Shown here: one piece after another, positions 1 to 33,281 of the stretch
Position numbering within the stretch: position 1 is the stretch's first letter
How the letters are laid out: every line of letters starts with the position of its first letter
Source of the DNA: Solirubrobacterales bacterium
GTDB taxonomy: Bacteria > Actinomycetota > Thermoleophilia > Solirubrobacterales > 70-9
Assembly: GCA_036787695.1 (NCBI GenBank)
Contig: DAIQOT010000001.1
Coordinates: 3,843-67,842, forward strand
Direction of reading: 5' to 3'
DNA: 64,000 nucleotides
Notes under the pieces: generated by a model
Seen by the model: only the letters and a program-made list of their open reading frames with translations
Database searches by the model: none
Told to the model about the DNA's origin: nothing
Position numbers and translations under genes: made by a program

Positions 1-130
1 GAGGTGGCCCTGGGCGTCTCGACAGCGGCCCGGGCAGGCTGTGGCCGCCGTCGAGACGCCAAGTCCGTGAGGGAGATTCAGGGAAGGTCAAGGGTTCGAC
101 ACGAACTCCACCCTTCCGTGCGCCCGGGAT

Positions 131-179
131 GTTGATGGGCCGAAAACTAAACACATAGTTGAGTTTTCGGCCCATCAAC
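131..179. repeat. P-unit palindrome (GTTGATGGGCCGAAAAC ... GTTTTCGGCCCATCAAC)
   Basis: 17-bp perfect inverted arms read directly. The stem extends inward (AACTAAAC/GTTGAGTT). One of five copies in the window. Confidence 0.85.
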
Positions 180-377
180 CCGGGGGTGTCATGCGATGCG
201 CACGAGAGGCGCGTGGATACCGGAGAAGCTGTGACGTTCCGCGCGTCTCTGTGACGTCTCCCCGCACCCTCGGCCGTCTCGGGCACGGCCACAGCCTGCC
301 CGGGCCGTGGCCGAGACGGCCTCGTCCTTTCAGCTTTCGGCCGGCGGCGCGGTGCGACGGTTCGGTGACACCCCGCT

Positions 378-1551: not shown

Positions 1552-2168
1552 CAGCCGGCCGCTTTGGTGCGCGGTTTGACCGCTTTGGCGCCGAGCGGGA
1601 GCGGCTCGGCGACCGCGTCCACCCCGTCGAGCGCGGCGGCCGTCGCGGCGACGCCGGTGAAGAGCTGGTCGAGCACCGTCTCGGCGCGCTCGCCGGGGAC
1701 GCCGTCGGTGAAGTCGGTGCCGTTGAGGTAGACGGCGACCGGCGCCACCACCGCGCCGAAGAAGGTGAGGACATCGCGCAGGTGCCGTTCGGCGCCGAGG
1801 AAGTGGTGGTCGGAGGCGCCCATCGCGACGATGCCGACGACCTTCGCCTGCAGCGCCGGGACCGGCGTCAGGTCGATCAGGTTCTTCAGCGACCCGCTCA
1901 GCGAGCCGCGGTAGATCGGCGTCGCGAAGATCACCGCCTTGGCGTTCTCGATCGCCGCGATCGCGTCGGCGGTGTCGTCGTCGAGGTCCGCGGGCGGGGT
2001 GCCGTTGGCGAAGCCGAGGTCGATCGCCCCGAGGTCGATCAGGTCGGCGCTCGTCCCGCGGGCGGCGGCCCGCTCGATCGCTCTGTCGATCGCCCGGTGC
2101 ATGCGCCCCGGAGGCGTGGTCGATCCGAGGATCACGCGGATATCAATGGGGTTCGTGTCAAGCGGCAA
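1551..2168 (-). CDS. NAD(P)H-dependent FMN reductase (SsuE/MsuE-like, FMN_red fold)
   Basis: IRVILGSTTPPG ... AVIFATPIYRGSLSGSLKNLIDL motif. The start is assigned to TTG 2168, which overlaps the stop of the upstream gene. The ORF-track start at 2249 would overlap that gene by 90 nt, and GTG 2135 is an alternative. Confidence 0.72.
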   Translation of the reverse strand: MPLDTNPIDIRVILGSTTPPGRMHRAIDRAIERAAARGTSADLIDLGAIDLGFANGTPPADLDDDTADAIAAIENAKAVIFATPIYRGSLSGSLKNLIDLTPVPALQAKVVGIVAMGASDHHFLGAERHLRDVLTFFGAVVAPVAVYLNGTDFTDGVPGERAETVLDQLFTGVAATAAALDGVDAVAEPLPLGAKAVKPRTKAAG

Positions 2169-3327
2169 GTTCGTCCTCCTCGATGTGGATCTCCGAATAG
2201 GCGCCGCGGTAGAAGAGCAGCGGTTTCGCTCCCGGCTCGCGGTGCTCAAGGTGGTGCGCGAGGCCGACGACGATCTCGTGGTCGCCGGCCGGGTAGATCG
2301 CCTCGACCTCGCAGGCGATCGTCGCCAGCGCGCCCGGCAGCACCGGGACGCCGAGGTCGTGCTCGTGGAACTCGACCTCGTGGGACGCGACGGCGTCGCC
2401 CTTCTTGGCGAAGCGGTCGGAATGCTCGCGCTGCTCGGCGGCGAGGATGTTGATCGCGAAGCGCCCTTCGGCGCGGACCGCGGCCAGCGTCTCCGAGCTG
2501 CGCGCCAGGCAGGCCAGCAGCAGCGGCGGATCGAGCGAGACCGAGGAGATCGCGTTGGCGGTGGTACCGACCGGGGCGCCGCCCTCCCCGCGCGCGGTGA
2601 CGACGGTCACCCCGGTGGCGAAGTGGCCCATCACGTCGCGCATCTTCCGGCCGACCTGGGCGATCTCGGCGGCGGCCTCCGGGGCCGCGGCGCGCCGGTG
2701 CTCGACCACGTCGGAGACGTTGACGATCACCAGGCCGTGGGACTCGGCGAAGCGCTCGAGATCCTGCTCGCGCGCCATGTGGCCGTCGTCGCGCATCAGC
2801 TGGCAGAGGACGGCGCCGCCGCCGAGGCCCGCGGTGCCCGCCAGGTCGACGGCCGCCTCGGTGCGACCGGCGCGCTCGAGGATGCCGCCCGGGCGGGCGC
2901 GCAACGGGAAGACGTGGCCGGGCTGGACGAGGTCGGCCGGGTCGCTCGCCGGATCGATCGCGGCGGCGATCGTGCGGGCGCGGTCGCCGGCGGAGATGCC
3001 GGTGGTGACGCCCTCCTTCGCCTCGATCGAGACCATCGCCGAGTCGCCGAGCGAGGACTGGTTGCCGCGGTTGCCGATCTGCTCGAGCCCGAGCCGGGCG
3101 CAGTGCTCGGTCGAGAGCGCCAGGCAGACGAGGCCGCGGGCCTCGGTCACCAGGAAGTTGATCGCCGCGGCGTCGGCGAACTCGGCGGCGATCAGCAGGT
3201 CGCCCTCGCCCTGGCGCTCGCGGTCGTCGCGCAGCAGGACCATGCGGCCCGCCGCCAGCTCCTCGGTGGCGACCGTGAAGGCGTCGCGCGCGACGGGGAC
3301 GTTCGGGACGAGGTCGAGCGGGTTCAT
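2158..3327 (-). CDS. Fusion protein: RibB-like (DHBP-synthase-like) domain + flavin reductase domain, paralog 1
   Basis: 389 aa from ATG 3327 (GGAGGG Shine-Dalgarno upstream). The N-terminal half carries RQGEGD, GVTTGISAGDR, PGHVFPL and TEAAVDL. The C-terminal half carries GHFATGVTVVT, SVSLDPPLLL and PLLFYRG (HpaC/Flavin_Reduct type). The upstream part of the 572-aa ORF is Arg/Pro-rich and non-coding-like. Confidence 0.85.
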   Translation of the reverse strand: MNPLDLVPNVPVARDAFTVATEELAAGRMVLLRDDRERQGEGDLLIAAEFADAAAINFLVTEARGLVCLALSTEHCARLGLEQIGNRGNQSSLGDSAMVSIEAKEGVTTGISAGDRARTIAAAIDPASDPADLVQPGHVFPLRARPGGILERAGRTEAAVDLAGTAGLGGGAVLCQLMRDDGHMAREQDLERFAESHGLVIVNVSDVVEHRRAAAPEAAAEIAQVGRKMRDVMGHFATGVTVVTARGEGGAPVGTTANAISSVSLDPPLLLACLARSSETLAAVRAEGRFAINILAAEQREHSDRFAKKGDAVASHEVEFHEHDLGVPVLPGALATIACEVEAIYPAGDHEIVVGLAHHLEHREPGAKPLLFYRGAYSEIHIEEDELAA

Positions 3328-3379
3328 CGGGCGGCCCTCCAGGGGGTCGGGGTGACGCGAAGCGGGCGCGGCGGGCCCA

Positions 3380-4840
3380 TCAGGCGGCCTGCCACTTCGT
3401 CGGCCCGGCGGCGAACGGGCGCAGCTCGGTCGGCAGCGGCATCTCTTCGGTTTCGCCGGTCCGCACGATCCGCCGGGCGATCGCGCCGGCGTGGTCGCGG
3501 ATCTCGGTGATCCCGATCGCCTCCCACTCGACCCCTTTGCGCACCGCCCCGACGGCGAAGATCCGGTCGGAGGCCAACCCCTCGGAGTCGAGCAGCGCTC
3601 CGTCCTCGGCGACGTCGAGGCCGAGGCCGAGCTCGTCGGCGCGGGCGCGGCCGGCGGCGAGCAGGCCCGCGAGGATCGGCGGCGCCTGTCGGCGGAGGTC
3701 GAAGCCCGCGCCCGTACAGTCGACGATCCGGTCGACCTCGACCATGTCGAGCTCATGGGCGCCGGGCGTGCGCAGGAAGACGCGAGCGCCGCGGCCGTGG
3801 GATTCGAGCGAGACGATCGAGGCGGCGCCGGTTTCGAGGCGCCCGGCGGCGACGAGCGCGTCGTAGCGGTCGGCAACCTCGGGTGCCATGCGGAAGCGGT
3901 GGACGTCCCAGAAGCGCTGGTACTCGGAGAGGAAGCGTTCCTTTTCCTCCAGCTTCAGCGCCTTCCACAGCTGCGGCGTCGCCGGGCGCATCGAGTCGAT
4001 CACGTCGCGCCAGTCGTCGCCCTGGCGGGAGACGCGGCCGACCTGGGCGAGGAAGGCGGCGAGCATCGGCTCGATCGTCCCGGTCTCGGTCGGGACGTGG
4101 AAGCGGCGCACGTTGGTGAGGCCGGGACGATGGCGGCGCGGCACGAGGCCGTGGCGGGAGACGGCGCGGACGCGCGGCCCCTCGCCCTCCTCGCCGAGTG
4201 TCAGCGCGACATCGACCATCGAGAGGCCGCTGCCGACGATCAGCACCGAGCGCTCGCGCCGCGCCTCGTCGAGGGCGCCCGCCGCCCACGGATCGGAGAT
4301 CCAGACGCCGGACTTCTTCAGCTCGGCCGGGACCGTGATCGGGTCGCCCGCCTGCAGCGGGCCGAGCGCGAGGACGACGCGGTCGGCCTCGATCCGCTCG
4401 CCGTCGGCCAGGTTCAGTTCGAGGACCGGATCGGCGGCGCCGGCGCGGACGGCGATCGAGGTGACGTCGCCCTGGACCCGCCGCACCCGCGCGTCGATCG
4501 CCTCGCGTTCGCCGCGGGCGAGCAGGTCACGGAGGTAGGTGGCGTAGAGGCCGCGCGGCAGGAAGGCCTCCTCGGCGACGTCTTCGCCACGCTCGGACAG
4601 CCACTCGTGGAAGTGCTCGGGATGCCCGGAGATCCCGCCCATCCGCACCGCCGGGACGTTCAGCAGGTGGAGCGGATCCTCGGTCCCGTAGGCGACGCCG
4701 GCGCCGAAGCTCCCGTCCCGGTCGATCAGGTCGATCTCGAGGGCGCCGCGTTCTCGGTGCTCGCAGAGCAGGTGGATCGCGACGAGCGCACCGGCGGCCC
4801 CGCCGCCGACGATCGCGACTCTCTGCGCCGGTTCGATCAT
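3380..4840 (-). CDS. FAD/NAD(P)-binding oxidoreductase (PF13454-like), paralog 1
   Basis: Rossmann motif VAIVGGGAAG at the N-terminus and a second dinucleotide motif LIVGSGLSMVD. Start set to ATG 4840 by analogy with the paralog at 30625-32088. GTG 4867 is the ORF-track start. Confidence 0.72.
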   Translation of the reverse strand: MIEPAQRVAIVGGGAAGALVAIHLLCEHRERGALEIDLIDRDGSFGAGVAYGTEDPLHLLNVPAVRMGGISGHPEHFHEWLSERGEDVAEEAFLPRGLYATYLRDLLARGEREAIDARVRRVQGDVTSIAVRAGAADPVLELNLADGERIEADRVVLALGPLQAGDPITVPAELKKSGVWISDPWAAGALDEARRERSVLIVGSGLSMVDVALTLGEEGEGPRVRAVSRHGLVPRRHRPGLTNVRRFHVPTETGTIEPMLAAFLAQVGRVSRQGDDWRDVIDSMRPATPQLWKALKLEEKERFLSEYQRFWDVHRFRMAPEVADRYDALVAAGRLETGAASIVSLESHGRGARVFLRTPGAHELDMVEVDRIVDCTGAGFDLRRQAPPILAGLLAAGRARADELGLGLDVAEDGALLDSEGLASDRIFAVGAVRKGVEWEAIGITEIRDHAGAIARRIVRTGETEEMPLPTELRPFAAGPTKWQAA

Positions 4841-4921
4841 TTGAGTTTCTGAATCTCCAAAGTCCACTATTACCCGATCATTCTTGCCGCAAAAGGGTGT
4901 AATTGGCGTTGAACAGTCGAG

Positions 4922-4961
4922 CCGGCCGGGACCTTCGACGCTCCGCGAAGGCCCCGGCCGG
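4922..4961 (-). terminator. GC-rich hairpin after the LLM gene at 4967-6082
   Basis: Arms CCGGCCGGGACCTTCG / CGAAGGCCCCGGCCGG match at 15 of 16 positions with an 8-nt loop. It lies 6 nt downstream of the stop codon. An AT-richer stretch follows before the next gene. Confidence 0.6.
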
Positions 4962-4966
4962 TCCGC

Positions 4967-6082
4967 TCAGGCGGCGACTTTCTCGCCGGCGCGCTCGCGG
5001 TGCGCCAGCTCCTGCCGCACGATCGGCAGCAGGTCGCGGCCGTAGTCGATCGCGTCGTCGAGCGGGTCGTAGCCGCGGATCAGGATCGTCGAGACGCCGA
5101 TGTCGACGTACTCGAGCAGCGCCTCGGCGACCGTCTCCGGCGAGCCGACCAGGGCGGTCGAGTTGCCCGGCGCGCCGGTCGCCATCGCCAGCGGGGTCCA
5201 CAGCGCCTTGCCGTGGAGCTCACCGCGCTCGGCCGCTTTCAGCTGCCGCTGCGAGCCGCCGGTCGGCGGCGCGTCCTTCAGCGCCCGCCAGCCACGGAAG
5301 TTCTGGCCCTCCTTGATCCGCGCGGTCGTCGTGTCGAGGATCCGGTGCGCGCGCTCCCAGGCGAGCTCGTCGGTGGCGCCGAGGATCGGCCGGAAGGAGA
5401 CGTGGATCCGCGGCGGCTCGGTCCGCCCGGCGGCCTCCGCCTCGGCTTTGATCCGGGCGATCTCCTCGGCGACCTGGTCGACCGGCTGGCCGAAGATCGC
5501 GTAGGTGTCGGCCTCGGCGGCGCCGACCGCGTAGGCGGTCTCCGAGGAGCCACCGAAGGAGATCGGGATCCGCGGCTTCTGGAACGGCTTCATTTCGGCC
5601 GAGTAGCCCTCGAGCTTGTAGAACTCGCCGTCGTAGTCGAACGGCTCCTCGGCGGTCCACGCCAGCTTCAGGATCTGCAGGTACTCGCGGGTGCGGGCGT
5701 AGCGCTGCTCCTTGTCGAGGTAGTCGCCGTCGCGGCGCTGCTCGACCTCGAAGCCGCCGGTGATCGTGTGCAGCGCGGTCCGCCCCTCGTTGAACTGGTC
5801 GAGGGTGGCGAAGGTGCGCGCGGCGACGGTCGGGAAGACGACGCCGGGACGGTGGGCGACGAGGTACTTCAGCCGCTCGGTGTGGGCCGAGGCGTAGGCG
5901 GCGACCTGGAGGCCGTCGGGCGAGCCCGAGCTGTAGCCGATCAGGACTTTGTCGAACCCGCCGTCCTCGTGGGCGCGGGCGAAGCGGCGCACGTACTCGC
6001 GGTCGACCAGCGGGCCGCCTTTGGAGGCGCGCGTCTCGGACTGGTCGAGCGTGGCGATCATGCCGACGAACTCAACTGACAT
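4967..6082 (-). CDS. LLM-class flavin-dependent oxidoreductase, distant SsuD relative
   Basis: 371 aa with HTITGG ... EQRRDGDYLDKEQRYARTREYL and GNSTALVGSPETVAEAL blocks typical of the SsuD-like LLM fold. The start overlaps the upstream ABC ATPase stop by 11 nt. Confidence 0.8.
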   Translation of the reverse strand: MSVEFVGMIATLDQSETRASKGGPLVDREYVRRFARAHEDGGFDKVLIGYSSGSPDGLQVAAYASAHTERLKYLVAHRPGVVFPTVAARTFATLDQFNEGRTALHTITGGFEVEQRRDGDYLDKEQRYARTREYLQILKLAWTAEEPFDYDGEFYKLEGYSAEMKPFQKPRIPISFGGSSETAYAVGAAEADTYAIFGQPVDQVAEEIARIKAEAEAAGRTEPPRIHVSFRPILGATDELAWERAHRILDTTTARIKEGQNFRGWRALKDAPPTGGSQRQLKAAERGELHGKALWTPLAMATGAPGNSTALVGSPETVAEALLEYVDIGVSTILIRGYDPLDDAIDYGRDLLPIVRQELAHRERAGEKVAA

Positions 6083-11623: not shown

Positions 11624-12517
11624 ATGGCGACCATCGAAGTGACCGAATTCACCGATCCCGGCTGCGTCTGGTCCTGGAGCAGCGAGCCGAAGCTCCGCCG
11701 GCTGCGCCGGCAGTACGGCGACCGCGTCGCCTGGCGACGGGTCTTCGGGATCCAGATCGACGACGTGAAGCTGAGCTTCCCCGACCGCGACCCGGTCGAC
11801 GGGGCCGAGGACTGGCGGGCCGACTGGCTCGCCGTGGCCGCCCACTCGGGCGCCCCGATCACCCCGCGGCTGGAGTGGATGCACACCTCGACCTGGCCCG
11901 CGAGCCGCGCGGCGAAGGCCGCCGAGGCCCAGGGCGACGAGGTCGCCGACGCGGTGCTGCGGCGCCTGCGCGAGGCGGTCTTCGTCGACGGCCGGCCCGC
12001 CGACAACCCCGAGCGGATCGCCCTCGCCCTCACCGGCGTCCCCGGGCTCGACCTCGACTGGCTGCTCGAGGACCTCGACTCCGACGCCGTCTCCGAGGCG
12101 ATCGCCAGGGACTTCGACGAGACCCGCGACCCGCATCCCGACGTCGTCGGCCTGAAGGAGGACGGCCCCCACCCCGGCGCCGCCAAGGCCGAAGGCCCGA
12201 TCGTCCGCTACTCCTTCCCCACCCTGATCATCACCGGCCCCGAGGGCGAGCGAGTGATGCCCGGCTGGCGCTCGATCGAGCAGTACGAGGAGGCCTTCGA
12301 GGCCGTCGCCCCGGAGCTTCGCGGCACGACCTTCACCCCCCTCGACCCCGCCGAGGCCCTCGCCATCTACCGCTCCCTGAGCCAAGAGGACCTGCGCCTC
12401 CTGACCGGCAGCTGCGAGCCGCCCGTCGGCGCGGTCGAGGTGAGCACCTCGACGAACCCGCTCTGGCTCGACCCGGTCGAGGCCGAGCGCCGCACCGCGA
12501 TCGCCGCCAGCTACTAG
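11624..12517 (+). CDS. DsbA/FrnE-like thioredoxin-fold protein with a CxxS motif
   Basis: N-terminus reads EFTDPGCVWSWSSEP, where FrnE/DsbA-type proteins carry DPxCPWC. 297 aa with a C-terminal extension. Confidence 0.65.
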   Translation: MATIEVTEFTDPGCVWSWSSEPKLRRLRRQYGDRVAWRRVFGIQIDDVKLSFPDRDPVDGAEDWRADWLAVAAHSGAPITPRLEWMHTSTWPASRAAKAAEAQGDEVADAVLRRLREAVFVDGRPADNPERIALALTGVPGLDLDWLLEDLDSDAVSEAIARDFDETRDPHPDVVGLKEDGPHPGAAKAEGPIVRYSFPTLIITGPEGERVMPGWRSIEQYEEAFEAVAPELRGTTFTPLDPAEALAIYRSLSQEDLRLLTGSCEPPVGAVEVSTSTNPLWLDPVEAERRTAIAASY

Positions 12518-13379: not shown

Positions 13380-13991
13380 TTACCCTGAGTGGGAAGCGCT
13401 GAGCGGCGGCCAGCTCGACCACTTCGAGCTGAACCAGCTCACCGAGCCGTCGTCGGGGTCGTAGGCGCGGCGCTGCCAGTTGCCGATGTCGGTGCCGTAG
13501 ATGTGGACGCCGACGCACGGCTCGTCGCCGCCGCAGGCGACCCAGTGGACGTCGTCGTCGGTCGTGCAGCAGACCGTCACGTCGCCCGGCGTCCAGTCGG
13601 ACTCGGCGACCTGGACGAGCTGCTCGCCCTCCGAGTGCGGCTTGGCGTAGGCGATCTCGTGCTCGGTGCCGCTGTAGATGCCGACGACCCCCCAGGTCTC
13701 GTGGCCGTGGATCGGCGTGCTCTGGCCGACGTTCCAGACCGCCGAGGCGATCGAGAAGCGGCCCTCGGGGTCGACGTGCAGCGGGTAGAGGACGTACTTG
13801 TCGTCGTCGGGGCGCCGGTAGTCGGCGTCGATCGCCGGGCCCTCGGCGAGCCAGCCGGTCAGCTTCCCGGCCACCTTGGCGGTGATCTCCTCCTCGGTGC
13901 CGCCCGCGTCGACGATCGTCTCGACCTCGTCGATCAGTTGCTGAAGTTTCGGATCGGCCATCGCCGGCCCTCCCTCTTGGTCGTCGGTCAT
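13380..13991 (-). CDS. Cysteine-dioxygenase-like cupin (COG5553-type thiol dioxygenase homolog)
   Basis: The WNVGQSTPIHGHETWGVVGIYSGTEHE and later VHIYG blocks match the CDO-type 3-His cupin pattern. ATG 13991 overlaps the upstream stop (ATGA). Confidence 0.62.
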   Translation of the reverse strand: MTDDQEGGPAMADPKLQQLIDEVETIVDAGGTEEEITAKVAGKLTGWLAEGPAIDADYRRPDDDKYVLYPLHVDPEGRFSIASAVWNVGQSTPIHGHETWGVVGIYSGTEHEIAYAKPHSEGEQLVQVAESDWTPGDVTVCCTTDDDVHWVACGGDEPCVGVHIYGTDIGNWQRRAYDPDDGSVSWFSSKWSSWPPLSASHSG

Positions 13992-14743
13992 ACCGTGGTC
14001 TTCCTCGCCCGCAGGCGACGCTCGTTCATCTCGCGGATCCGGCCGGCGAGGCCGGGGCGGCTCGCCAGCGAGCGGACCAGCGACCCCATCGGATCGGGCG
14101 CCGAGCCGTGGGCCCCCGCCTCTCGCTGGATCGCGGCGACCGTCTCGGGGGCGCGGCGCACCAGTTCGCGGGCGATGTCGGTGCCGACGCCGGGGCCGTC
14201 GTCGTCGAGGCGCTTCCAGATCCCGGCCCGCTCGGCCTCCTGGGAGCGGATCGCGCGGCCGGTCGCGGCGGCCTCGGCGGCGAAGGCGGAGTTGGTGCAT
14301 TCGGCCAGCCGCCGCACGCCGAGGACGGCGCCGAACTCGCTGCCGGGGAAGCGCAGGCTCGCCGCCGCGGTGGCGTAGCGGACCGTCGTCGCCATCACCA
14401 GGTCGGCGCCGGCGCCGGCGGCCGCCCCGCGGACGACCGCGACGCTGAGCAGCGGGCCGTACCAGAGCTTCTCCAGCAGCAGCTCGATCCGCACCAGGCG
14501 CAGCAGCATCGAGGCGTCGGTCTCGCCGATCAGCCCGGCCAGCCCGAGCCCGGCGCAGAACGCCCGGCCCTCGGCCTCGATCACGAGGACGCGGGTCCCG
14601 TTCTCGGTCGCCGTGTCGACGGCCTCGTGGAGCGCCTCGACCATCGTCGCGTCGAGCGCGTTGGCGCTGTCCGGCGAAGCGAGGGTGACGGTCGTCACCG
14701 GCCCGTCTTTGGCGACGACGATCGGCGGCAGCGCGTCGTTCAT
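13988..14743 (-). CDS. Crotonase-fold protein (enoyl-CoA hydratase/isomerase family)
   Basis: RVLVIEAEGRAFCAGLGL and AVVRGAAAGAGADLVMA blocks. ATGA overlap with the upstream CoA transferase. Confidence 0.78.
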   Translation of the reverse strand: MNDALPPIVVAKDGPVTTVTLASPDSANALDATMVEALHEAVDTATENGTRVLVIEAEGRAFCAGLGLAGLIGETDASMLLRLVRIELLLEKLWYGPLLSVAVVRGAAAGAGADLVMATTVRYATAAASLRFPGSEFGAVLGVRRLAECTNSAFAAEAAATGRAIRSQEAERAGIWKRLDDDGPGVGTDIARELVRRAPETVAAIQREAGAHGSAPDPMGSLVRSLASRPGLAGRIREMNERRLRARKTTV

Positions 14744-15951
14744 ACGAGCTCCTCGTCGGCCGGCACCTCGACGCCCCAGTCCGCGGTCACCTCGTCGTTG
14801 TGCTCGCCGAGGCGCGGCGGCGCCAGGTCGAGTCGCGGGCCGGCGCGGCCGTCGCGGACCGGGTAGACCGTGGTCGAGGTCGAGTGGGCGACCGGCATCG
14901 CCATCTCGCGGATCAGGCCGGAGTCGACGACGGCGGGGTCGTTGAGGATGTCGGCGAAGGTGTTCAGCGGGCTGACCGGGATGCCGCGCTCCCGCAGCAT
15001 CGCCACCCAGACTTCCGCGTCTTTCTCGGCGAGCCGCGCGTTCAGGATGCTCTCCAGCTCGACCTGGTTGGCGACCCGGTCGGTCTGGCTGACGAACCGC
15101 GGGTCGGTCGGCAGGTCGGGCAGCTCGAGCAGCTCGCAGAGCGAGACCCAGAGCTTCTCGTTGCCCGCGGCGATCGCCAGCTCCCGATCCCGGGCCTTGA
15201 ACATCTGGTACGGCGCGTTGCGGGGATGGCGCGTCCCCAGCATCTCGGGGCTCTTGCCCGAGCCCCAGTACTCGCTGGTCTGCAGCGCCGAGATCGCCAG
15301 CATGCAGTCGAGCATCGGCGTGTCGAGGTGGATCGAGCGGCCGGTCTCGCGCACGCTCGGCAGGTAGGCGATCGCGGTCAGCACCGCGTAGAGGCCGGTG
15401 GCGAAGTCGGCGATCGGGACACCGGCCTTGACCGGCTCGCCCTCCTCGGTCCCGGTGACGCTCATCATCCCGCTCATCGCCTGGGTGACGACGTCGAAGG
15501 CGCCGAGGTTGCGGTAGGGCCCGGTCTGGCCGAAGCCCGAGATCGAGGCGTAGACCAGCCCGCGGTGCCCCTCGGAGACCTGCTCGTAGGCGAGCCCGAA
15601 GCGGCCGAGCACGCCCGGCCGGTAGTTCTCGACGACGATGTCGGCGGCCTCGATCAGCCCCTTCACCTTGCGCAGGTCCTCGGGGTCCTTGAAGTCCGCC
15701 GCGACACTCCGCTTGTTGCGGTTGAGCGAGGCGAAGTTGTGGCTGAACGACTCGCCCGTCTCGTCGGTGACGATCGGCGCCCAGTTGCGCATCATGTCGC
15801 CGGTCGGCGGCTCGACCTTGACCACGTCGGCGCCGAGGTCGGCGAGCAGCATCCCCGCGAACGGCCCCGCGGCGACGTGGCCCATCTCGACCGCCCGCAC
15901 CCCTGCCAGCGGCCGCTGATCGGCGGCGTCGCGCGGGTCGGCGGTGATCAC
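14740..15951 (-). CDS. Family III CoA-transferase (CaiB/BaiF type)
   Basis: The N-terminus (PLAGVRAVEMGHVAAGPFAGMLLADLGADVVKVEPP) is a textbook CaiB/BaiF opening. GTG 15951 overlaps the upstream stop (GTGA). The rest of the 829-aa ORF is a GC-shadow extension. Confidence 0.85.
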   Translation of the reverse strand: MITADPRDAADQRPLAGVRAVEMGHVAAGPFAGMLLADLGADVVKVEPPTGDMMRNWAPIVTDETGESFSHNFASLNRNKRSVAADFKDPEDLRKVKGLIEAADIVVENYRPGVLGRFGLAYEQVSEGHRGLVYASISGFGQTGPYRNLGAFDVVTQAMSGMMSVTGTEEGEPVKAGVPIADFATGLYAVLTAIAYLPSVRETGRSIHLDTPMLDCMLAISALQTSEYWGSGKSPEMLGTRHPRNAPYQMFKARDRELAIAAGNEKLWVSLCELLELPDLPTDPRFVSQTDRVANQVELESILNARLAEKDAEVWVAMLRERGIPVSPLNTFADILNDPAVVDSGLIREMAMPVAHSTSTTVYPVRDGRAGPRLDLAPPRLGEHNDEVTADWGVEVPADEELV

Positions 15952-17297
15952 GCTCCCCCGGCCGGCGACAGGCGCTCGACGGTGTAGCGGTTCTCCGGGA
16001 TCGCGAGGCCGAGATGGCCGCGCAGGGTGTCCTCTTGGTAGGAGGAGCGGGCGAGGCCGCGCTCCCTCAGGATCGGCAGGACCTCGTCGGTGAAGCGGGT
16101 GAACTCGCTCGGCACCGTGACGTGGAGGATGAACCCGTCGGCGGCGCGGCCCTCGAACCAGCGCTCGATCTCGTCGGCGACCGTCTGCGGCGAGCCGACG
16201 AAGCCGCCGCCGCGGAACATCCGCTGCGCGTAGAGCACCGTCTCGCGCAGGGTCAGCCCCTGCTCGCGGGCGATCGTCTGCAGCCGATTCGTCATCGTGG
16301 CGCCCCCGCGGGCGGCGTACTGGGCGACGTCGGGGAACGGCGCGTCGGGGTCGTACTGGCTGAAGTCGTGCCAGCCGTAGGGACGGCCGAATTCGGCCAG
16401 CGACTTCTCGAAGCTTTTCGCCCCCTCGCGCGCCTCCCTCAGCTCGTGGGCCTCCTCGTCGGTGTCGGCGATCACCGGCAGCATCGAGGGCATGATCACC
16501 ATTTCGTCGGGGTTGCGGCCCTTGTCGGCGGCGCGTCCCTTCATCTCGGCGTAGAAGTCCTGCGCCTCCTCGAAGCTGCGGGCCATCGTGAAGATGCCCT
16601 CGCCGACGGTCGCCGCCAGGTCGCGCCCCTCCTCGGAGTCGCCGGCCTGGAAGATCACCGGGCGGCCCTGGGCGGAGCTCTCGATGTTCAGCGGGCCGAC
16701 CACCGAGAAGTGCTCGCCCTGGTGGTCGAGCGTGTGCTGGCGGCTCGGGTCGAAGAAGACGCCGGCGGCCTTGTCGCGGGGGAAGGCGTCGTCCTCGTAG
16801 GAGTCCCAGAGGCCCTGGGCGACGCGGACGTGCTCGAGCGCGCGGCCGTAGCGGGTCGGGTAGTCGAAGTGCTCCTCGCGGCCGTAGTTTTTCGACGTCC
16901 CGGGGTCGAGTGACGTGACGACGTTCCAGCCGGCGCGGCCGGCGCTGATCAGATCGACCGAGGCGAGCTGGCGGGCGACGTGGAACGGCTCGGTGTAGGA
17001 GGTCGTGATCGTCGCGACCAGGCCGATCTTCTCGGTCGCCACGGCGAGGGCGGCGAGCAGGGTCAGCGGCTCGAGCCGGTTCAGGTAGTGAGGCGGCGAA
17101 TCGGGGGTGATGAACTGGCTGTCCACCACGAAGACGAAGTCGAACAGCGCCTTTTCGGCCTGCCGGGCGCGCTCGATGTACCAGTCGATTTTGACGCTCG
17201 CGTCGCCGGGGATCTCCGGGTCGAGCCAAGTGTTCTGTTGACCAGGACCCCCCACACCAACCGGGGCGACCCCGAATTTCAATTGTCGATCAGTCAT
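15948..17297 (-). CDS. LLM flavin monooxygenase, NtaA/SnaA/DszA family
   Basis: 449 aa from ATG 17297, with LEPLTLLAALA, GRAGWNVVTS, RPVIFQAGDSEEGRD and FILHV blocks. Confidence 0.85.
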   Translation of the reverse strand: MTDRQLKFGVAPVGVGGPGQQNTWLDPEIPGDASVKIDWYIERARQAEKALFDFVFVVDSQFITPDSPPHYLNRLEPLTLLAALAVATEKIGLVATITTSYTEPFHVARQLASVDLISAGRAGWNVVTSLDPGTSKNYGREEHFDYPTRYGRALEHVRVAQGLWDSYEDDAFPRDKAAGVFFDPSRQHTLDHQGEHFSVVGPLNIESSAQGRPVIFQAGDSEEGRDLAATVGEGIFTMARSFEEAQDFYAEMKGRAADKGRNPDEMVIMPSMLPVIADTDEEAHELREAREGAKSFEKSLAEFGRPYGWHDFSQYDPDAPFPDVAQYAARGGATMTNRLQTIAREQGLTLRETVLYAQRMFRGGGFVGSPQTVADEIERWFEGRAADGFILHVTVPSEFTRFTDEVLPILRERGLARSSYQEDTLRGHLGLAIPENRYTVERLSPAGGA

Positions 17298-17498
17298 GTC
17301 AACAATTGTGCCCCCCTTCTGGTTCAACCCGTCTTGAATCAAGGTTGGCGAGGGACGGGCGGCCGTCCGAGATGGTCCTGGGCGTCTCGACAGCGGCCCG
17401 GGCAGGCTGTGGCCGCCATCGAGACGCCCAGTCCGTGAGGGAGATTCAGGGAAGGTCAAGGGTTCGCCACGAACTCCACCCTTCCGTGCGCCCGGGAT

Positions 17499-17547
17499 GT
17501 TGATGGGCCGAAAACCGGACATATAGGGAGGTTTTCGGCCCATCAAC
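17499..17547. repeat. P-unit palindrome
   Basis: GTTGATGGGCCGAAAAC, then a 15-nt loop, then GTTTTCGGCCCATCAAC. The loop differs from the copy at 131-179. Confidence 0.85.
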
Positions 17548-17745
17548 CCGGGAGTGTCATGCGACGCGCACGAGAGGCGCGTGGATACCGGAGAAGCTGT
17601 GACGTTCCGCGCGTCTCTGTGACGTCTCCCCGCACCCTCGGCCGTCTCGGGCACGGCCACAGCCTGCCCGGGCCGTGGCCGAGACGGCCTCGTCCTTTCA
17701 GCTTTCGGCCGGCGGCGCGGTGCGACGGTTCGGTGACACCCCGCT

Positions 17746-17794
17746 GTTGATGGGCCGAAAACCGGACATATAGGGAGGTTTTCGGCCCGTCGAC
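17746..17794. repeat. P-unit palindrome, variant right arm
   Basis: Identical to 378-426. It abuts the ssuD-2 stop codon. Confidence 0.8.
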
Positions 17795-18922
17795 CTAGAC
17801 GACCAAGGGCTCGGGGGAGGCGATCAGGCCTCGGGAGCGGAGGACCGGGATGAGGCCCTCGCCTACTCGGTAGGCCTCCTCCAGGTGGGGGTAGCCGGAG
17901 AGGATGAACTCGTCGATGCCCAGGTCGTGGTACTCGGCGATGCGGTCCGCGACTTCGTCGTGGGAGCCGACCAAGGCGGTGCCGGCGCCGCCGCGGACCA
18001 GGCCGATGCCGGCCCAGAGGTTCGGGGAGACCTCTAGGTGGTCGGTGCGGCCGCCGTGGAGTTCGGTCATGCGGCGCTGGCCCTCTGATTCGGAGGCTCC
18101 CTGGATCGACTGGGCTTTGGCGATCTGCTCGTCGGAGAGGCCGGCGAGCATGCGCTCGGCGACGGCCCAGGCCTCCTCGGCGGTATCGCGGGTGATGACG
18201 TGGAGGCGGATGCCGAAGCCGAGCTCACGGCCCTCCAAGTCGGCCGCCTCGCGGACCGTGTCGAGCTTCGCCGCGACCGCCGCGGGGGGCTCGCCCCAGG
18301 TGAGGAAGACGTCGGCGCGGCGGGCGGCAACTTCGACCGCGGCGGCGGAGCTACCGCCCAGGTAGACGGTCGGCCAGGCAGGCGGGTCGAGGAGGCGCGC
18401 GCCCTCGATGTCGAACCACTCGCCGGAGAAGTTGACCTCCTCCCCGGTCCACAGCTCCCTCACGATCGCGAGGAACTCGTCGGCCCGCGCGTAGCGGGAG
18501 TCCTTGCCGATCGTGTCGCCATAGCGGCGCTGCTCGACCGCGTCGCCGCCGACCACCACGTTCAGCAGCAGGCGATCCCCCGACACCCGCTGGTAGGTGG
18601 CCGCCGCCTGCGCGGCGAGGGTCGGCGACTGCAGCCCGGGACGGAAGGCGACCAGGTACTTGAAGTCGCGGGTGTGCTGGGTCAGCGCCGCGGTGATCAC
18701 CCAGGCCTCCTCGCACCAGGAGCTGGTCGGGGTGAGCGCCGCCTCGAAGCCGAGGCTCTCGGCGGCGCGGGCGACCTGCGACATGTAGGCGAGGTCACCC
18801 TTGCGGGCGTTCGTCGCCGCGTCGTCGATCCGCGCCCCGTGCGCCCCGACCGCGTTGCCGAGGCTGAGGTCGGTGTGGGAATCGCCGTTGGTCGGCAGGA
18901 ACCAGTGGAGTCGTACGGGCAT
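17795..18922 (-). CDS. ssuD: FMNH2-dependent alkanesulfonate monooxygenase (SsuD-type LLM), paralog 2
   Basis: 375 aa, collinear with 427-1551. The last 51 codons are nucleotide-identical to paralog 1. Confidence 0.88.
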   Translation of the reverse strand: MPVRLHWFLPTNGDSHTDLSLGNAVGAHGARIDDAATNARKGDLAYMSQVARAAESLGFEAALTPTSSWCEEAWVITAALTQHTRDFKYLVAFRPGLQSPTLAAQAAATYQRVSGDRLLLNVVVGGDAVEQRRYGDTIGKDSRYARADEFLAIVRELWTGEEVNFSGEWFDIEGARLLDPPAWPTVYLGGSSAAAVEVAARRADVFLTWGEPPAAVAAKLDTVREAADLEGRELGFGIRLHVITRDTAEEAWAVAERMLAGLSDEQIAKAQSIQGASESEGQRRMTELHGGRTDHLEVSPNLWAGIGLVRGGAGTALVGSHDEVADRIAEYHDLGIDEFILSGYPHLEEAYRVGEGLIPVLRSRGLIASPEPLVV

Positions 18923-29402: not shown

Positions 29403-30572
29403 TCAAGCGGCAAGATCGTCCTCCTCGATCTGGATCTGGCTGTAGGAGCCGCGGTAGAAGAGCAGCGGCTTGGCGCCCGGCTCGCGGTGCTCGAGGTGCT
29501 GGGCGAAGCCGACGACGATCTCGTGGTCGCCCGCCGGGTAGATCGACTGGACGTCGCAGGCGATCGTCGCCAGCGCCCCCGGGATCGTCGGCACGCCGAG
29601 GTCGTGGTCGTTGAACTCGACCTCGTGGGAGCGGACGGCGTCGCCCTTCTTGGCGAAGCGGTCGGAGTGGTGGCGCTGCTCGTCGGCGAGGATGTTGATC
29701 GCGAGACGGCCCGTCTCGCGGATCGCCGCCAGGGTCTCGGAGTTGCGCGCCAGGCAGGCGAGCAGCAGCGGCGGGTCGAGCGACACCGAGGAGATCGCGT
29801 TGGCCGTCGTGCCGACCGGCTTGCCGTCGCCGTCGCGCGCGGTGATCACCGAGACGCCGGTGGCGAAGTGGCCCATCACGTCGCGCATCAGCCGGCCGGT
29901 CTTGGCGATCTCGGCGGCGGCCGCGGGAGCCGCGGCGCGGACGTGCCGGGCGACGTCGGAGACGTCGAGGATCGCGAGGCCGTGGCGGGTGGCGAAGACC
30001 TCGAGGTCCTCCCCGGTCGCCATGTGGCCGTCCTCCCTCATCACCTGGCAGAGGACGCCGGCGCCGCGGAGACCGGCGACGCCGGTCAGCTCGACCGCCG
30101 CCTCGGTGCGGCCGGCGCGCTCGAGGATCCCGCCGGGACGCGCCCGCAGGGGGAAGATGTGTCCGGGCACGACGAGGTCGGCGGGGCCGCTCGCCGGGTC
30201 GGCGGCGACGGCGATCGTGCGGGCGCGGTCGCCGGCCGAGATGCCGGTGGTGACGCCCTCCTTCGCCTCGATCGAGACCATCGCCGAGTCGCCGAGGCTC
30301 GACTGGTTGCCGCGGTTGCCGATCTGCTCGAGGCCGAGTTCGACACAGCGCTCGGTCGAGAGCGCGACGCAGACGAGGCCGCGCGCCTCGGTGACCATGA
30401 AGTTGACCGCGTCGGCGTCGGCGAACTCGGCGGCGATGAGGAGGTCCCCCTCCCCCTGGCGCTCTGAGTCGTCGCGCAGCAGGACCATGCGGCCCGCGGC
30501 GAGCTCGTCGGTGGCGAGGGTGAAGGCGTCGGGCGCGGCGGGGATGTCGGGAACGAGGTCGAGCGGGTTCAT
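29403..30572 (-). CDS. Fusion protein: RibB-like domain + flavin reductase domain, paralog 2
   Basis: Same 1170-nt length as 2158-3327 when started at ATG 30572 (GGAGAA Shine-Dalgarno upstream). Same motif set (RQGEGD, PGHIFPL, AGRTEAAVEL, GHFATGVSVIT). Confidence 0.85.
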   Translation of the reverse strand: MNPLDLVPDIPAAPDAFTLATDELAAGRMVLLRDDSERQGEGDLLIAAEFADADAVNFMVTEARGLVCVALSTERCVELGLEQIGNRGNQSSLGDSAMVSIEAKEGVTTGISAGDRARTIAVAADPASGPADLVVPGHIFPLRARPGGILERAGRTEAAVELTGVAGLRGAGVLCQVMREDGHMATGEDLEVFATRHGLAILDVSDVARHVRAAAPAAAAEIAKTGRLMRDVMGHFATGVSVITARDGDGKPVGTTANAISSVSLDPPLLLACLARNSETLAAIRETGRLAINILADEQRHHSDRFAKKGDAVRSHEVEFNDHDLGVPTIPGALATIACDVQSIYPAGDHEIVVGFAQHLEHREPGAKPLLFYRGSYSQIQIEEDDLAA

Positions 30573-30624
30573 CGGGGGGTTCTCCATCGGTGGGTGGTGG
30601 GGCGAAGTCGGTGCGGGGCGGAGA

Positions 30625-32088: not shown

Positions 32089-33254
32089 CGCTGGGCCCCC
32101 ACGGCGAAGGGGACCGCGGTGCCCTGGCGGCCGCCGGAGGTGGCGGCCCCGGTCGCGTCAGGCGGTGACCAGAGCCCGCGGCGCTCGAGCAGCGGCAGGA
32201 CGCCCTCGCCGAACCAGTAGAGCTCCTCCAGGTGCGGGTAGCCGGAGAGGACGAACTCCTCGATCCCGGCGTCGGCGTACTCCTCGATCCGCCCGGCGAC
32301 CTCGGCGTGCGAGCCGACCAGCGCGGTGCCGGCCCCGCCGCGTCCGAGGCCGACCCCGGCCCAGAGGTTGGGGTAGACCTCGAGGCCGTCGCGCGAGCCG
32401 CCGTGGAGCTCGGTCATGCGGCGCTGGCCCTCCGACTCCGACCGGCGGAGCTTCGCCTGGACCTGGGCGATCGTCTCCGCGGGGACCGAGTCGAGCAGGC
32501 GCTCGGCCTCCGCCCAGGCGGCGGCGTCGGTGTCGCGGGAGATCGTGTGGAGGCGGATGCCGAAGCGCACCTCGCGGCCACGCTCCGCCGCCGCCTCCCT
32601 GACCCGCCCGATCTTCTCGGCGACCGCGGCGGGCGGCTCGCCCCAGGTGAGGTAGACGTCGACGTGCTCGGCGGCGACCTCGATCCCGGCGGGCGAGGAG
32701 CCGCCGAAGTAGATCTCCGGGCGCGGGTCGGGGAGGCGGTGGATGGTGGCGCCCTCGACCCGCAGGTGCTCGCCGGCGAAGTCGACGCTCTCGCCGTCCC
32801 AGAGGCGGGAGACGATCTCGAGGAACTCGCCGGTCCGGACGTAGCGCTCCTCCTTGCCGAGGAAGTCGCCGAAGGCGCGCTGTTCGGCCGCGTCGCCGCC
32901 GGTCACCACGTTGAGGAGCAGGCGCCCGTTGGAGTGCCACTGGAAGGTCGCGGCCATCTGCGCGGCGAGCGTCGGGCTGACCAGGCCGGGACGGAAGGCG
33001 ACCAGGAACTTGAGCCGCTCGGAGGTCTCCGCGAGCATCGCGGTGACCACCCAGGCGTCGTCGCACCAGCCGCCGGTCGGGGTGAGCGCCGCCTCGAAGC
33101 CGAGGTCCTCGGCGGCGGTGGCGACGCGGGTCAGGTAGGCGACCGAGGCCTCGCGCAGGCCTCCGGCGGTCCCCGCAGGGGGCGCCTCGCCGGTCTCGAT
33201 CAGGCCGCGGCCGTCGCCCTGGGTGGGCAGGAACCAGTGGAACTTCAGGGGCAT
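32085..33254 (-). CDS. SsuD-type LLM monooxygenase, paralog 3
   Basis: MPLKFHWFLPTQGD at ATG 33254, preceded by a GAGGAG Shine-Dalgarno. NVVTGGD and SESEGQRRM blocks are present. ATG 33275 is the ORF-track start. Confidence 0.85.
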   Translation of the reverse strand: MPLKFHWFLPTQGDGRGLIETGEAPPAGTAGGLREASVAYLTRVATAAEDLGFEAALTPTGGWCDDAWVVTAMLAETSERLKFLVAFRPGLVSPTLAAQMAATFQWHSNGRLLLNVVTGGDAAEQRAFGDFLGKEERYVRTGEFLEIVSRLWDGESVDFAGEHLRVEGATIHRLPDPRPEIYFGGSSPAGIEVAAEHVDVYLTWGEPPAAVAEKIGRVREAAAERGREVRFGIRLHTISRDTDAAAWAEAERLLDSVPAETIAQVQAKLRRSESEGQRRMTELHGGSRDGLEVYPNLWAGVGLGRGGAGTALVGSHAEVAGRIEEYADAGIEEFVLSGYPHLEELYWFGEGVLPLLERRGLWSPPDATGAATSGGRQGTAVPFAVGAQR

Positions 33255-33281
33255 GGAACTCCTCGCGTCAGTCATCAGAGG

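Follow-up and report, generated by a model that had tools for sequence, protein, structure and literature searches.

Which enzyme might release the sulfur in an operon that resembles a known route for mercapto-carboxylic acids and is devoid of the corresponding desulfinase? This question is raised by four genes of a soil actinobacterium of the Solirubrobacterales. The earlier note on this DNA had likened them to the route of Variovorax paradoxus TBEA6 and Advenella mimigardefordensis DPN7, correctly cited there, which comprises Mdo, Act or SucCD, and AcdA/AcdDPN7 (PMC6370202). In addition, it had noted that an acyl-CoA-dehydrogenase (ACAD)-like desulfinase is lacking. This was confirmed: tblastn with a single ACAD query (E ≤ 1e-4) found no homolog in the window, i.e. 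the whole 64-kb stretch of DNA analysed, and a single-query search detected no ACAD-like gene in the stored flanks of related actinobacterial loci (up to 10 kb per side). The CoA-transferase (CoAT), crotonase-fold protein (ECH) and cupin encoded here, the last similar to 3-mercaptopropionate dioxygenases (3MDOs), probably desulfurate mercapto-acids along a so far undescribed variant of the Mdo/Act/Acd pathway.

Genetic organization of the locus

As claimed before, four overlapping genes (13380-17297) are arranged on the minus strand in the order luciferase-like monooxygenase (LLM), CoA-transferase, crotonase, cupin (Table 1). All of them have a coding-type GC3 of 0.95-1.0, and the three 4-nt overlaps can be read in the sequence (GTGA at 15951-15948, ATGA at 14743-14740 and ATGA at 13991-13988). 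A second possible start of the cupin gene, an ATG in frame at 13961, has a strong Shine-Dalgarno site (GGAGGG) in front of it. A start at 13991 is plausible, because the ECH and cupin genes of relatives overlap by the same 4 nt.

Table 1. Genes and leader region of the operon and its surroundings
Feature	Length	Position	Strand	Basis
DsbA-like thioredoxin-fold protein, convergent neighbour		11624..12517	+	Pfam Thioredoxin_5 60 bits, DSBA 34 bits
ArsR/SmtB-type HTH regulator	239 aa	12583..13302	-	NF033788 59 bits (cutoff 55)
3-His cupin, thiol dioxygenase homolog	203 aa	13380..13991	-	PDB 3MDO matches
Atypical crotonase-fold protein	251 aa	13988..14743	-	ECH_1
Family III (CaiB/BaiF/Frc) CoA-transferase, GTG start overlapping LLM stop	403 aa	14740..15951	-	Pfam CoA_transf_3
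NtaA/DmoA-family FMNH2-dependent LLM	449 aa	15948..17297	-	TIGR03860
Leader/intergenic region upstream of LLM	497 nt	17298..17794	-	Highly structured repeated element
SsuD-like LLM, immediately upstream	375 aa	17795..18922	-	TIGR03565 441 bits (cutoff 518 not reached)

The leader presumably holds the promoter. It has an RNA fold z-score of -8.3, contains two exact copies of a 43-nt hairpin as well as 50-nt long-range inverted arms and is 95% identical to positions 1-300 of the window. Neither a sigma-70 consensus nor an Rfam match was found in it. The SsuD-like LLM gene upstream belongs to an island that makes up the window and encodes at least nine LLMs, flavin reductases and peptide-type ABC transporters. 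Downstream, the ArsR/SmtB-type gene follows the operon on the same strand after 78 nt and keeps this position at the three closest loci (L001-L003); possibly, it is a fifth operon gene or encodes the operon's regulator. The DsbA-like neighbour is conserved at L001 and L002.

A conserved triad of CoA-transferase, crotonase and cupin

Conservation in other genomes was borne out for three of the four genes: CoA-transferase, crotonase and cupin genes are adjacent at 42 of 73 informative actinobacterial loci. Since the order CoAT-ECH-cupin recurs in this way, the arrangement is not due to chance. Crotonases of the same family, 40% identical and with an unchanged GAGADL/FPG signature, are encoded in Variovorax, Cupriavidus and Bordetella. 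Their genes lie between or beside those for a CoA-transferase and a 3MDO-like cupin of the classical Gln-type. As the triad occurs in both Actinobacteria and beta-proteobacteria, two dioxygenase subfamilies that are 31-34% identical share the same two partners. Judged by gene content and order, the triad is the conserved core, and its recognition is a new result of this analysis.

The components are also found apart, and the crotonase is not bound to the cupin. CoAT-ECH pairs without cupin are located beside flavin reductase, LLM and YeiH-type transporter genes, some distant pairs in non-sulfur contexts (L087), and about 28 related cupins in other neighbourhoods, e.g. with LysR plus RibD_C or with rhodanese. 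The distant pairs, together with the low Pfam score of the cupin (see below), would agree with mere co-location of genes for a generic acyl-CoA side pathway and a cupin of other function. We consider this extremely improbable: the triad is kept across phyla and there includes true Gln-type MDO homologs, neighbourhoods with LLM, flavin-reductase, rhodanese and YeiH genes are met repeatedly, and the cupin retains the active-site residues described in the following.

The cupin resembles 3MDOs and represents a separate subfamily

With 19.2 bits, the cupin stays under the gathering score of Pfam CDO_I (23). Its best matches among solved structures are the 3MDOs of Pseudomonas aeruginosa (3uss/4tlf, E 6e-25) and Azotobacter vinelandii (6xb9, E 1.5e-23), both 'Gln-type' thiol dioxygenases. 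H95, H97 and H149 align with their Fe ligands, so that the 3-His iron site is present. H163 and Y165 correspond to the last two residues of the SHY motif, and R174 aligns with Arg168, which binds the substrate carboxylate in Av3MDO (PMC8050391). In contrast to these 3MDOs, the cupin has G161 in place of Ser155 and an additional motif, VCCTTDDD, located before the third His, invariant in its own family and specific to it. The distinction between Gln-type and Arg-type signatures suggested earlier could be checked and gave neither: L68 occupies the position of Gln62, and most relatives have Met there. By alignment, the cupin is 3MDO-like and belongs to a distinct subfamily.

CoA-transferase and crotonase are related to known enzymes, the latter with an altered active site

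The identities proposed for these two proteins were upheld by 373.8 bits against CoA_transf_3 and 84 bits against ECH_1. The nearest curated models of the CoA-transferase are dicarboxylate transferases (succinate-glutarate, oxalate, mesaconate), all under their equivalog cutoffs. Asp153 aligns with a conserved Asp column of 4ed9, SUGCT, YfdE and Frc, which we take to be the catalytic Asp. 3-Sulfinopropionate (3SP) is a succinate analogue.

In the crotonase, the two catalytic Glu are replaced by Asp114 (GAGADL) and Gly134 (FPG). The first exchange had been noticed before and proved invariant across the family; the second had been overlooked. The C-terminal motif LVRS..PGL..R is conserved, too. 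Both the sequence search (E 3e-29) and Foldseek with the AF2 model (pLDDT 82; TM 0.82-0.86) yielded 3isa as best match, a structural-genomics entry for a putative enoyl-CoA hydratase/isomerase of Bordetella parapertussis with no assigned function. It belongs to the same subfamily, carries GAGVDL and MPG at the catalytic positions followed by a shortened loop, and is 45% identical to the crotonase from a CoAT-cupin-ECH operon of Bordetella sp. Compared with E. coli PaaF, CaiD, ScpB and PaaG, the crotonase has no equivalent of Glu164 and retains a single acid, at the position of Glu144. This is the pattern of the decarboxylase ScpB, unlike that of the hydratases PaaF and CaiD. ScpB Tyr140, presumably a functionally important residue, maps to a loop deleted in the crotonase.

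The one-acid pattern and the decarboxylase-type VirD among the Foldseek neighbours beyond 3isa would suit a 2-mercapto acid (thioglycolate, thiolactate) as substrate. The crotonase would then act like a methylmalonyl-CoA decarboxylase and expel SO2 from a 2-sulfino-acyl-CoA via the thioester enolate, in direct analogy to decarboxylation. However, the Tyr140 loop is missing, 2-mercapto acids are scarce in nature, and the partner cupins are 3MDO-like, with an Arg168 geometry described for a three-carbon thiol-carboxylate chelate (PMC8050391). Moreover, sulfinosuccinate, an alpha-sulfinate, was reported to decompose on its own without an enzyme (PMC5373536). This makes such a substrate very unlikely.

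The LLM is the variable component

The LLM scores 481 bits against TIGR03860 (NtaA/DmoA; cutoff 279.7), and its best PDB matches are 3sdo (1e-126) and Bacillus subtilis YtnJ/MoxC, i.e. CmoJ (1e-119). CmoJ, its nearest characterised relative, is a C-S monooxygenase that cleaves the C-S bond of S-alkylcysteine sulfoxides (PMC10863075). By this kinship, the LLM is probably a feeder C-S monooxygenase.

The earlier note had instead suggested that the NtaA/DszA-type LLM might carry out or replace the desulfination step. In such a model, the LLM would take the sulfur off the sulfinate or the corresponding CoA ester, and CoA-transferase and crotonase would process only the carbon skeleton (e.g. acryloyl-, 3-hydroxypropionyl- or propionyl-CoA). 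Superfamily members such as SsuD, MsuD, SfnG, DszA and CmoJ do release sulfite or cleave C-S bonds (PMC10863075), the LLM leads the operon in the window, and some LLM gene lies within 7 kb at 36 of the 42 triad loci. Yet family and position vary between lineages: an NtaA-type LLM was found at 6 and SsuD/SfnG-like LLMs at 33 of the 42 loci, and the gene is sometimes located downstream of the cupin gene. No LLM is encoded in the four beta-proteobacterial operons examined or at six actinobacterial triad loci. In addition, a housekeeping carbon role is unlikely for the crotonase, since ordinary hydration of an enoyl-CoA depends on two Glu residues that are missing from it. Since it is not conserved, the LLM is not favoured as a replacement of the desulfinase, and we regard its desulfinating role as quite improbable. 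The Asp/Gly crotonase seems to be the better candidate for the missing step, because it is the invariant partner of CoA-transferase and dioxygenase.

A proposed pathway for sulfur release

The operon might serve sulfur scavenging: a mercapto-carboxylic acid of the 3-mercaptopropionate (3MP) type would be converted into assimilable sulfite via a CoA-bound sulfinate, from which the crotonase releases the sulfur. This is the most likely of the readings considered and is put forward tentatively. The genomic setting is in line with it: the window is rich in genes for LLMs, flavin reductases and ABC transporters, and downstream of the V. paradoxus operon lies a gene for a putative sulfate exporter of the YeiH family. 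The NtaA/CmoJ-like LLM, using FMNH2 from the flavin reductases encoded nearby, might first cleave a thioether or sulfoxide to a thiol or sulfenate, a step that would depend on the lineage. By homology, the cupin would dioxygenate the thiol to a sulfinate, e.g. 3SP, and the family III CoA-transferase would form the sulfino-acyl-CoA, as does Act of Variovorax. The atypical crotonase could then release the sulfur, either by proton-assisted desulfination to propionyl-CoA and sulfite or by beta-elimination to acryloyl-CoA and a sulfur oxyanion. The acyl-CoA product could then pass its CoA on to another molecule of substrate.

Against this pathway, the sulfinate of 3SP-CoA occupies the position beta to the thioester, so that classical crotonase enolate chemistry would not directly expel SO2. 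Beta-elimination from it would yield sulfoxylate, not sulfite. In favour of it, CoA activation would be sensible for a stable beta-sulfinate, because alpha-sulfinates such as sulfinosuccinate decompose spontaneously. Further observations speak against the proposed pathway. The crotonase is devoid of the residue to which C-alpha proton transfer is usually assigned. The cupin departs from 3MDOs at Gln62 and Ser155, has a sub-threshold CDO_I score and possesses some 28 relatives elsewhere.

Accessory genes would also suit another order of the reactions. At the 33 loci with SsuD/SfnG-like LLMs, one or two of their genes are located directly upstream of the triad. Extended Aeromicrobium operons (L067, L074) carry a gene for crotonyl-CoA carboxylase/reductase, which fits an enoyl-CoA intermediate and does not indicate the leaving group. 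TctC binding proteins are encoded within beta-proteobacterial operons. Such genes would accord with prior activation of S-substituted 3-thiopropionates (3,3'-thiodipropionate, S-(2-carboxyethyl) adducts) by the CoA-transferase, retro-Michael cleavage by the crotonase to acryloyl-CoA and a mercapto-acid, thiol oxidation by the cupin and final desulfonation by SsuD/NtaA-type LLMs; TctC proteins would fit di-/tricarboxylate thioethers. V. paradoxus TBEA6 needs two enoyl-CoA hydratases for thiodipropionate and not for 3SP, and its Ech-20 binds TDP-CoA (PMC6370202). On the other hand, elimination requires a C-alpha base, apparently missing in the crotonase, the beta-proteobacterial operons examined provide no LLM for the last step, CoAT-ECH pairs occur without cupin, and natural thioethers yielding a carboxylated thiol are scarcer than 3MP. 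We therefore judge this order of events to be rather unlikely.

Comparison with known systems

B. subtilis CmoJ, a member of the same NtaA/DszA-type LLM family, salvages sulfur from thioethers (PMC10863075). In contrast to the CmoJ operon, acetyltransferase, deacetylase and CmoO are missing here, and the LLM is slightly more similar to 3sdo. In E. coli, CaiB/CaiD (carnitine) and ScpC/ScpB (succinate to propionate) likewise pair a CoA-transferase with a crotonase-fold enzyme, and the product CoA ester re-primes the substrate, the cycle proposed here. In ScpB, as in the crotonase, only the first of the two catalytic positions carries an acid. However, both Glu residues are present in CaiD, the crotonase has lost the Tyr140 loop of ScpB, ScpC does not belong to the family III transferases and the E. 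coli substrates lack sulfur. With the Variovorax/Advenella route, the operon shares a CDO/MDO-family cupin adjoining a family III CoA-transferase and the sequence thiol, sulfinate, sulfino-acyl-CoA, sulfite (PMC6370202). In contrast to that route, the genes are joined in a single operon with translational coupling, LLMs and flavin reductases point to sulfur scavenging instead of carbon catabolism, and the cupin of the Actinobacteria forms a subfamily of its own, with Leu or Met at the position of Gln62 and Gly at that of Ser155. The third partner, invariably present, is an Asp/Gly crotonase and not an ACAD-fold desulfinase.

The operon and its surroundings

An earlier note had described four genes at 13380-17297 as a CoA-dependent organosulfur module. 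Coordinates and family matches agree with this description (see table), and the three 4-nt start/stop overlaps that the note had claimed are present in the sequence. For the crotonase and cupin genes, relatives show the identical 4-nt overlap. Position 13961 is a possible alternative start of the cupin gene and has a strong Shine-Dalgarno site. An ArsR-type regulator gene is located 78 nt downstream of the operon and is kept with it in the three closest loci. A riboswitch was not found in an Rfam scan of 11-19 kb, whose sole match was a chance, snoRNA-like one, and a scan for sigma-70 promoters and terminators yielded nothing exceeding shuffled sequence.

The window has a G+C content of ~70%, and its GC3 frame plot places nearly all genes from about 300 to 34,700 on the minus strand. 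The island around the operon is dense in flavin-dependent genes of the sulfur-scavenging type: It comprises at least nine luciferase-like flavin monooxygenases (LLMs), one SsuE-like FMN reductase, two DHBP-synthase/flavin-reductase fusions, two NAD_binding_9 oxidoreductases and two ABC transporters of the peptide/nickel type, each equipped with an SBP_bac_5 binding protein. The nearest public locus (L001) belongs to a Solirubrobacterales MAG, and its cupin is 97% identical at the protein level. Operon DNA was found in about 20 soil metagenome runs, and metatranscriptomes contain traces of it (5-6% of words).

Features of the window and of related loci in other genomes (L numbers)
Feature	Position	Strand	Remarks
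LLM	15948-17297		NtaA/DmoA family, 481.3 bits, above the TIGR03860 curated cutoff (279.7)
Family III CoA-transferase	14740-15951		374 bits
Crotonase	13988-14743		ECH_1, 84 bits
Cupin	13380-13991		Pfam CDO_I, 19.2 bits, under the cutoff (23)
Invariant cupin segment VTVCCTTDDDVH	13530-13590		Residues 138-149
Structured non-coding stretch	17298-17794		497 nt
43-nt hairpin GGGCCGAAAACC..GGTTTTCGGCCC	378-420, 17499-17541, 17746-17788	minus	Three copies
Duplicated block 1	1-1551, 17369-18922		SsuD-like LLM and downstream non-coding region
Duplicated block 2	2158-6082, 29403-33275		DHBP-synthase/flavin-reductase fusion, NAD_binding_9 oxidoreductase, LLM
RibB-like/flavin reductase fusions	about 2158-3355, 29403-30587	minus	
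Extended operons	L067 2967-11947, L074 2916-11911		Asp/Gly crotonase, IclR, CoA-transferase-like gene, second crotonase, another CoA-transferase, crotonyl-CoA carboxylase/reductase, cupin, AhpD-like protein, permease
Split triad (Prauserella flavalba)	L028 4275-10537		Three genes between crotonase and cupin
Lyase_1-family gene	L090 9284-10633, L091 9194-10552		End of the Cupriavidus and Bordetella operons

Repeated elements of the island

The non-coding stretch between the operon and the upstream SsuD-like LLM is structured and repeated. It has a strong predicted structure (z -8.3) with 50-nt long-range inverted arms, and is 95% identical to window positions 1-300, which is above the identity of the neighbouring paralogous coding sequence (83-91%). 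Each copy of the perfect hairpin element lies in a non-coding stretch (1-430 or 17298-17794) downstream of an SsuD-like LLM. Either a MITE/REP-like element or a conserved leader is conceivable for the repeated stretch. The island also contains two segmental duplications, the second of which is present in two copies at 74-91% DNA identity. The fusion of a RibB-like 3,4-dihydroxy-2-butanone-4-phosphate synthase with a flavin reductase domain is an unusual pairing for a monooxygenase island. A stand-alone DHBP_synthase gene follows a CoA-transferase-crotonase pair in L085 and L086.

The cupin resembles 3-mercaptopropionate dioxygenases

The cupin fell short of the CDO_I gathering score, although its phmmer matches to the solved 3-mercaptopropionate dioxygenases (3MDOs) are strong, with E values of 6e-25 (P. 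aeruginosa, Pa) and 1.5e-23 (A. vinelandii, Av). Mammalian CDO was matched only at E > 0.006. Residue invariance was judged on an alignment with the 3MDOs and on a 22-sequence family alignment. In line with the thiol-dioxygenase-like cupin of the earlier note, the 3-His iron site is present and invariant: H95, H97 and H149 correspond to H89, H91 and H142 of Pa3MDO. The Ser-His-Tyr motif is incomplete, with H163 and Y165 invariant and an invariant Gly161 in the Ser position. This motif speeds the thiol dioxygenase reaction, yet activity is possible without it (PMC8050391). Classified by Gln-type or Arg-type signature, as had been suggested, the cupin fits neither: The position of rat CDO Arg60 and Pa3MDO Gln62 is Leu68 in the window cupin and Met in most relatives (YV[LM]YPL), while the 3MDO Arg168 equivalent, R174, is present and invariant. 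In Av3MDO, the substrate carboxylate is bound by Arg168, with no significant contact from the eponymous Gln (PMC8050391). An invariant segment, VCCTTDDD, is peculiar to the family of the window cupin.

Judged by alignment, the cupin represents a third sequence type among thiol dioxygenase homologs, because conserved iron ligands and R174 are combined with Leu68/Met, with Gly for Ser and with VCCTTDDD. Its substrate is most probably a thiol that also bears a carboxylate.

The VTVCCTTDDDVH segment comprises two neighbouring Cys and an acidic run directly ahead of the third iron-ligand His. It is limited to the actinobacterial cupin family and not found in the 3MDOs.

The crotonase lacks the canonical catalytic glutamates

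The crotonase fold with an oxyanion hole is supported by the ECH_1 match, an AF2 model with a pLDDT of 82 and Foldseek probabilities of 1.0 to many crotonases. The canonical Glu pair of enoyl-CoA hydratases (rat Glu144 and Glu164) is absent. Asp114 occupies the Glu144 position, as the earlier note had read it, and Gly134 the Glu164 position, followed by a three-residue deletion in the loop. When aligned jointly with E. coli enzymes, the window family shows Asp/Gly at these two positions, against Glu/Glu in PaaF and CaiD, Glu/Val in the decarboxylase ScpB and neither Glu in the isomerase PaaG. A C-terminal motif, LVRS..PG[LF]..R, is conserved in and specific to this family. The best structural relative of the crotonase is 3isa from Bordetella parapertussis, a protein of unknown function (E 3e-29, TM 0.82-0.86). 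The family reaches into the beta-proteobacteria, and its Variovorax member has over 1,500 database matches at E<=1e-20.

The CoA-transferase covers the CoA_transf_3 profile at full length (positions 1-366; 373.8 bits). Its Asp153 falls in an Asp column that is conserved in 4ed9, SUGCT, YfdE and Frc and that we take to hold the catalytic Asp. It scores highest against dicarboxylate-specific family III enzymes and missed every NCBIfam equivalog cutoff. The LLM is nearest to 3sdo and to B. subtilis YtnJ/MoxC, alias CmoJ (E 1e-119), which cleaves the C-S bond in N-acetyl-S-alkylcysteine sulfoxides (PMC10863075).

Conservation in Actinobacteria and beta-proteobacteria

A cupin-family scan with one genome per species yielded 80 loci, 73 of them with sufficient upstream sequence. 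To catch divergent CoA-transferase and crotonase genes, e.g. in Nonomuraea insulae, the tblastn limits were loosened. The arrangement is conserved elsewhere: CoA-transferase, Asp/Gly crotonase and cupin genes (the triad) adjoin in the same order on one strand in 42 of the 73 loci, among others in Nocardioides, Nocardia, Marmoricola, Pimelobacter, Agreia, Pseudonocardia and Dietzia. An NtaA-type LLM precedes the triad in the three Solirubrobacterales-like loci only; in Marmoricola and some Nocardioides, it follows the cupin. In most loci, one or two SsuD/SfnG-like LLMs occur instead, together with two flavin reductases, an ABC transporter and a protein resembling alpha/beta-hydrolases. An LLM is missing within 7 kb in six of the triad loci. 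With one ACAD (acyl-CoA dehydrogenase) query, tblastn (E<=1e-4) found no ACAD-type desulfinase in the window or in L001-L083, which for the window upholds the earlier statement that such a gene is missing. Nor do the recurrent neighbours of the actinobacterial loci include an ACAD-sized cluster.

Aeromicrobium-type extended operons contain extra CoA-transferases, a second crotonase and a crotonyl-CoA carboxylase/reductase (Ccr). In L067 and L074, the latter matches TIGR01751 with 503 bits, and the second crotonase retains the Glu164 equivalent only. In L067, the CoA-transferase-like gene is accompanied by a further full-length CoA-transferase. The genes inserted in the split triad of P. flavalba resemble, by eye, two family I CoA-transferase subunits and an acyl-CoA synthetase. 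About 28 cupin-family members with 47-55% identity (L050-L080; Nonomuraea, Actinomadura, Lentzea and others) occur without CoA-transferase or crotonase. They sit after a RibD_C (dihydrofolate-reductase-like) gene with a divergent LysR gene. In L058, the cupin is preceded by a 530-aa multi-rhodanese protein and two NtaA-type LLMs.

All four beta-proteobacterial operons examined (Variovorax sp. KK3, V. paradoxus, Cupriavidus pauculus and Bordetella sp.) consist of a divergent IclR gene followed by CoA-transferase, cupin, crotonase and an AhpD-like CxxC protein, after which TctC, an enzyme of the Lyase_1 family or a putative sulfate exporter of the YeiH type sometimes appears. Their cupins are classical Gln-type enzymes (YQQYLLH, SISIH.YG) with 31-34% identity to the window cupin. 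That two dioxygenase subfamilies have the same two partners is the strongest argument that the three enzymes share one substrate skeleton. A module role other than sulfur is a rival explanation; homology and this cross-phylum synteny support the organosulfur reading. CoA-transferase-crotonase pairs without a cupin also exist and have flavin reductases, an LLM and a transporter of the YeiH type as neighbours.

With the model of the coenzyme M enzyme XcbD (3-sulfopropionylcysteine synthase), the Lyase_1-family gene that ends the Cupriavidus and Bordetella operons reaches 478 bits, less than the cutoff of 600 and similar to its score for adenylosuccinate lyase. It may encode a C-S lyase or synthase whose target is a thioether of the succino or sulfopropionyl type.

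A candidate route for mercapto-acid desulfurisation

In the known route, 3-mercaptopropionate is converted by Mdo to 3-sulfinopropionate (3SP), by Act or SucCD to 3SP-CoA and by the ACAD-like AcdA to propionyl-CoA and sulfite (PMC6370202). For the module, we infer that the Asp/Gly crotonase would perform the sulfur-releasing step and that the LLM would be a lineage-specific feeder, which cleaves the C-S bond of a thioether or sulfoxide to yield the thiol. This assignment is made because the LLM is of changing family and position and some lineages dispense with it, whereas the crotonase is invariant. It is consistent with the loss of the residue for C-alpha proton transfer and the retention of one acid near C-beta, and with AcdDPN7, which also lacks the catalytic base of acyl-CoA dehydrogenases. 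The proposal of the earlier note that the LLM may carry out or stand in for desulfination is not favoured, since LLM family and position vary and neither six of the triad loci (within 7 kb) nor the four beta-proteobacterial operons have one. An LLM acting as sulfinate-to-sulfonate oxidase within the core pathway was rejected because it is missing in the latter operons.

The crotonase would yield either propionyl-CoA and sulfite or acryloyl-CoA together with a reduced oxyanion of sulfur; the Ccr gene of some operons hints at an enoyl-CoA. If the crotonase works by beta-elimination, sulfoxylate would be released, which is not an established metabolite. A rival explanation reverses the order: CoA-transferase and crotonase would act first as a thioether-CoA lyase system and set the thiol free, which agrees with the Ech-20 hypothesis in TBEA6. 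Another is an alpha-sulfino variant with a decarboxylase-like reaction. As sulfinosuccinate reportedly breaks down spontaneously (PMC5373536), mercaptosuccinate was down-weighted as a substrate, and a CoA-dependent step is more plausible for a stable beta-sulfinate, e.g. 3SP.

The module is undescribed in the literature searched, which covered crotonase-type desulfinases, sulfoxylate and monooxygenases, newer 3-sulfinopropionate work and the CdoB context. With more doubt than confidence, we propose that the Asp/Gly crotonases, 3isa included, are an unrecognised sulfino-acyl-CoA desulfinase or C-S lyase, non-homologous to but isofunctional with the ACAD-type 3SP-CoA desulfinase, and that, together with CoA-transferase and thiol dioxygenase, they make up a widespread route of three enzymes by which soil Actinobacteria and beta-proteobacteria would desulfurise mercapto-acids.

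3-Mercaptopropionate is among the commonest low-molecular-weight thiols in sediments and soils, where it arises from DMSP and methionine breakdown. To our knowledge, its aerobic fate has been worked out only in a few beta-proteobacteria that were of interest for polythioester production. A conserved three-gene module without the known desulfinase, shared by many soil Actinobacteria with Variovorax, Cupriavidus and Bordetella, would, if confirmed, point to a second, probably commoner, solution. It would also provide a function for an orphan crotonase subfamily with an existing crystal structure (3isa), set apart a third sequence type among bacterial thiol dioxygenases and widen the crotonase repertoire by a reaction that cleaves C-S bonds. 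Compared with the Mdo-Act-Acd route, the window module has candidate enzymes for the first two functions and, in the single-query tblastn search, no ACAD-like enzyme for the third. We rate it as a variant of this known pathway, with the orphan crotonase subfamily as its interesting part.
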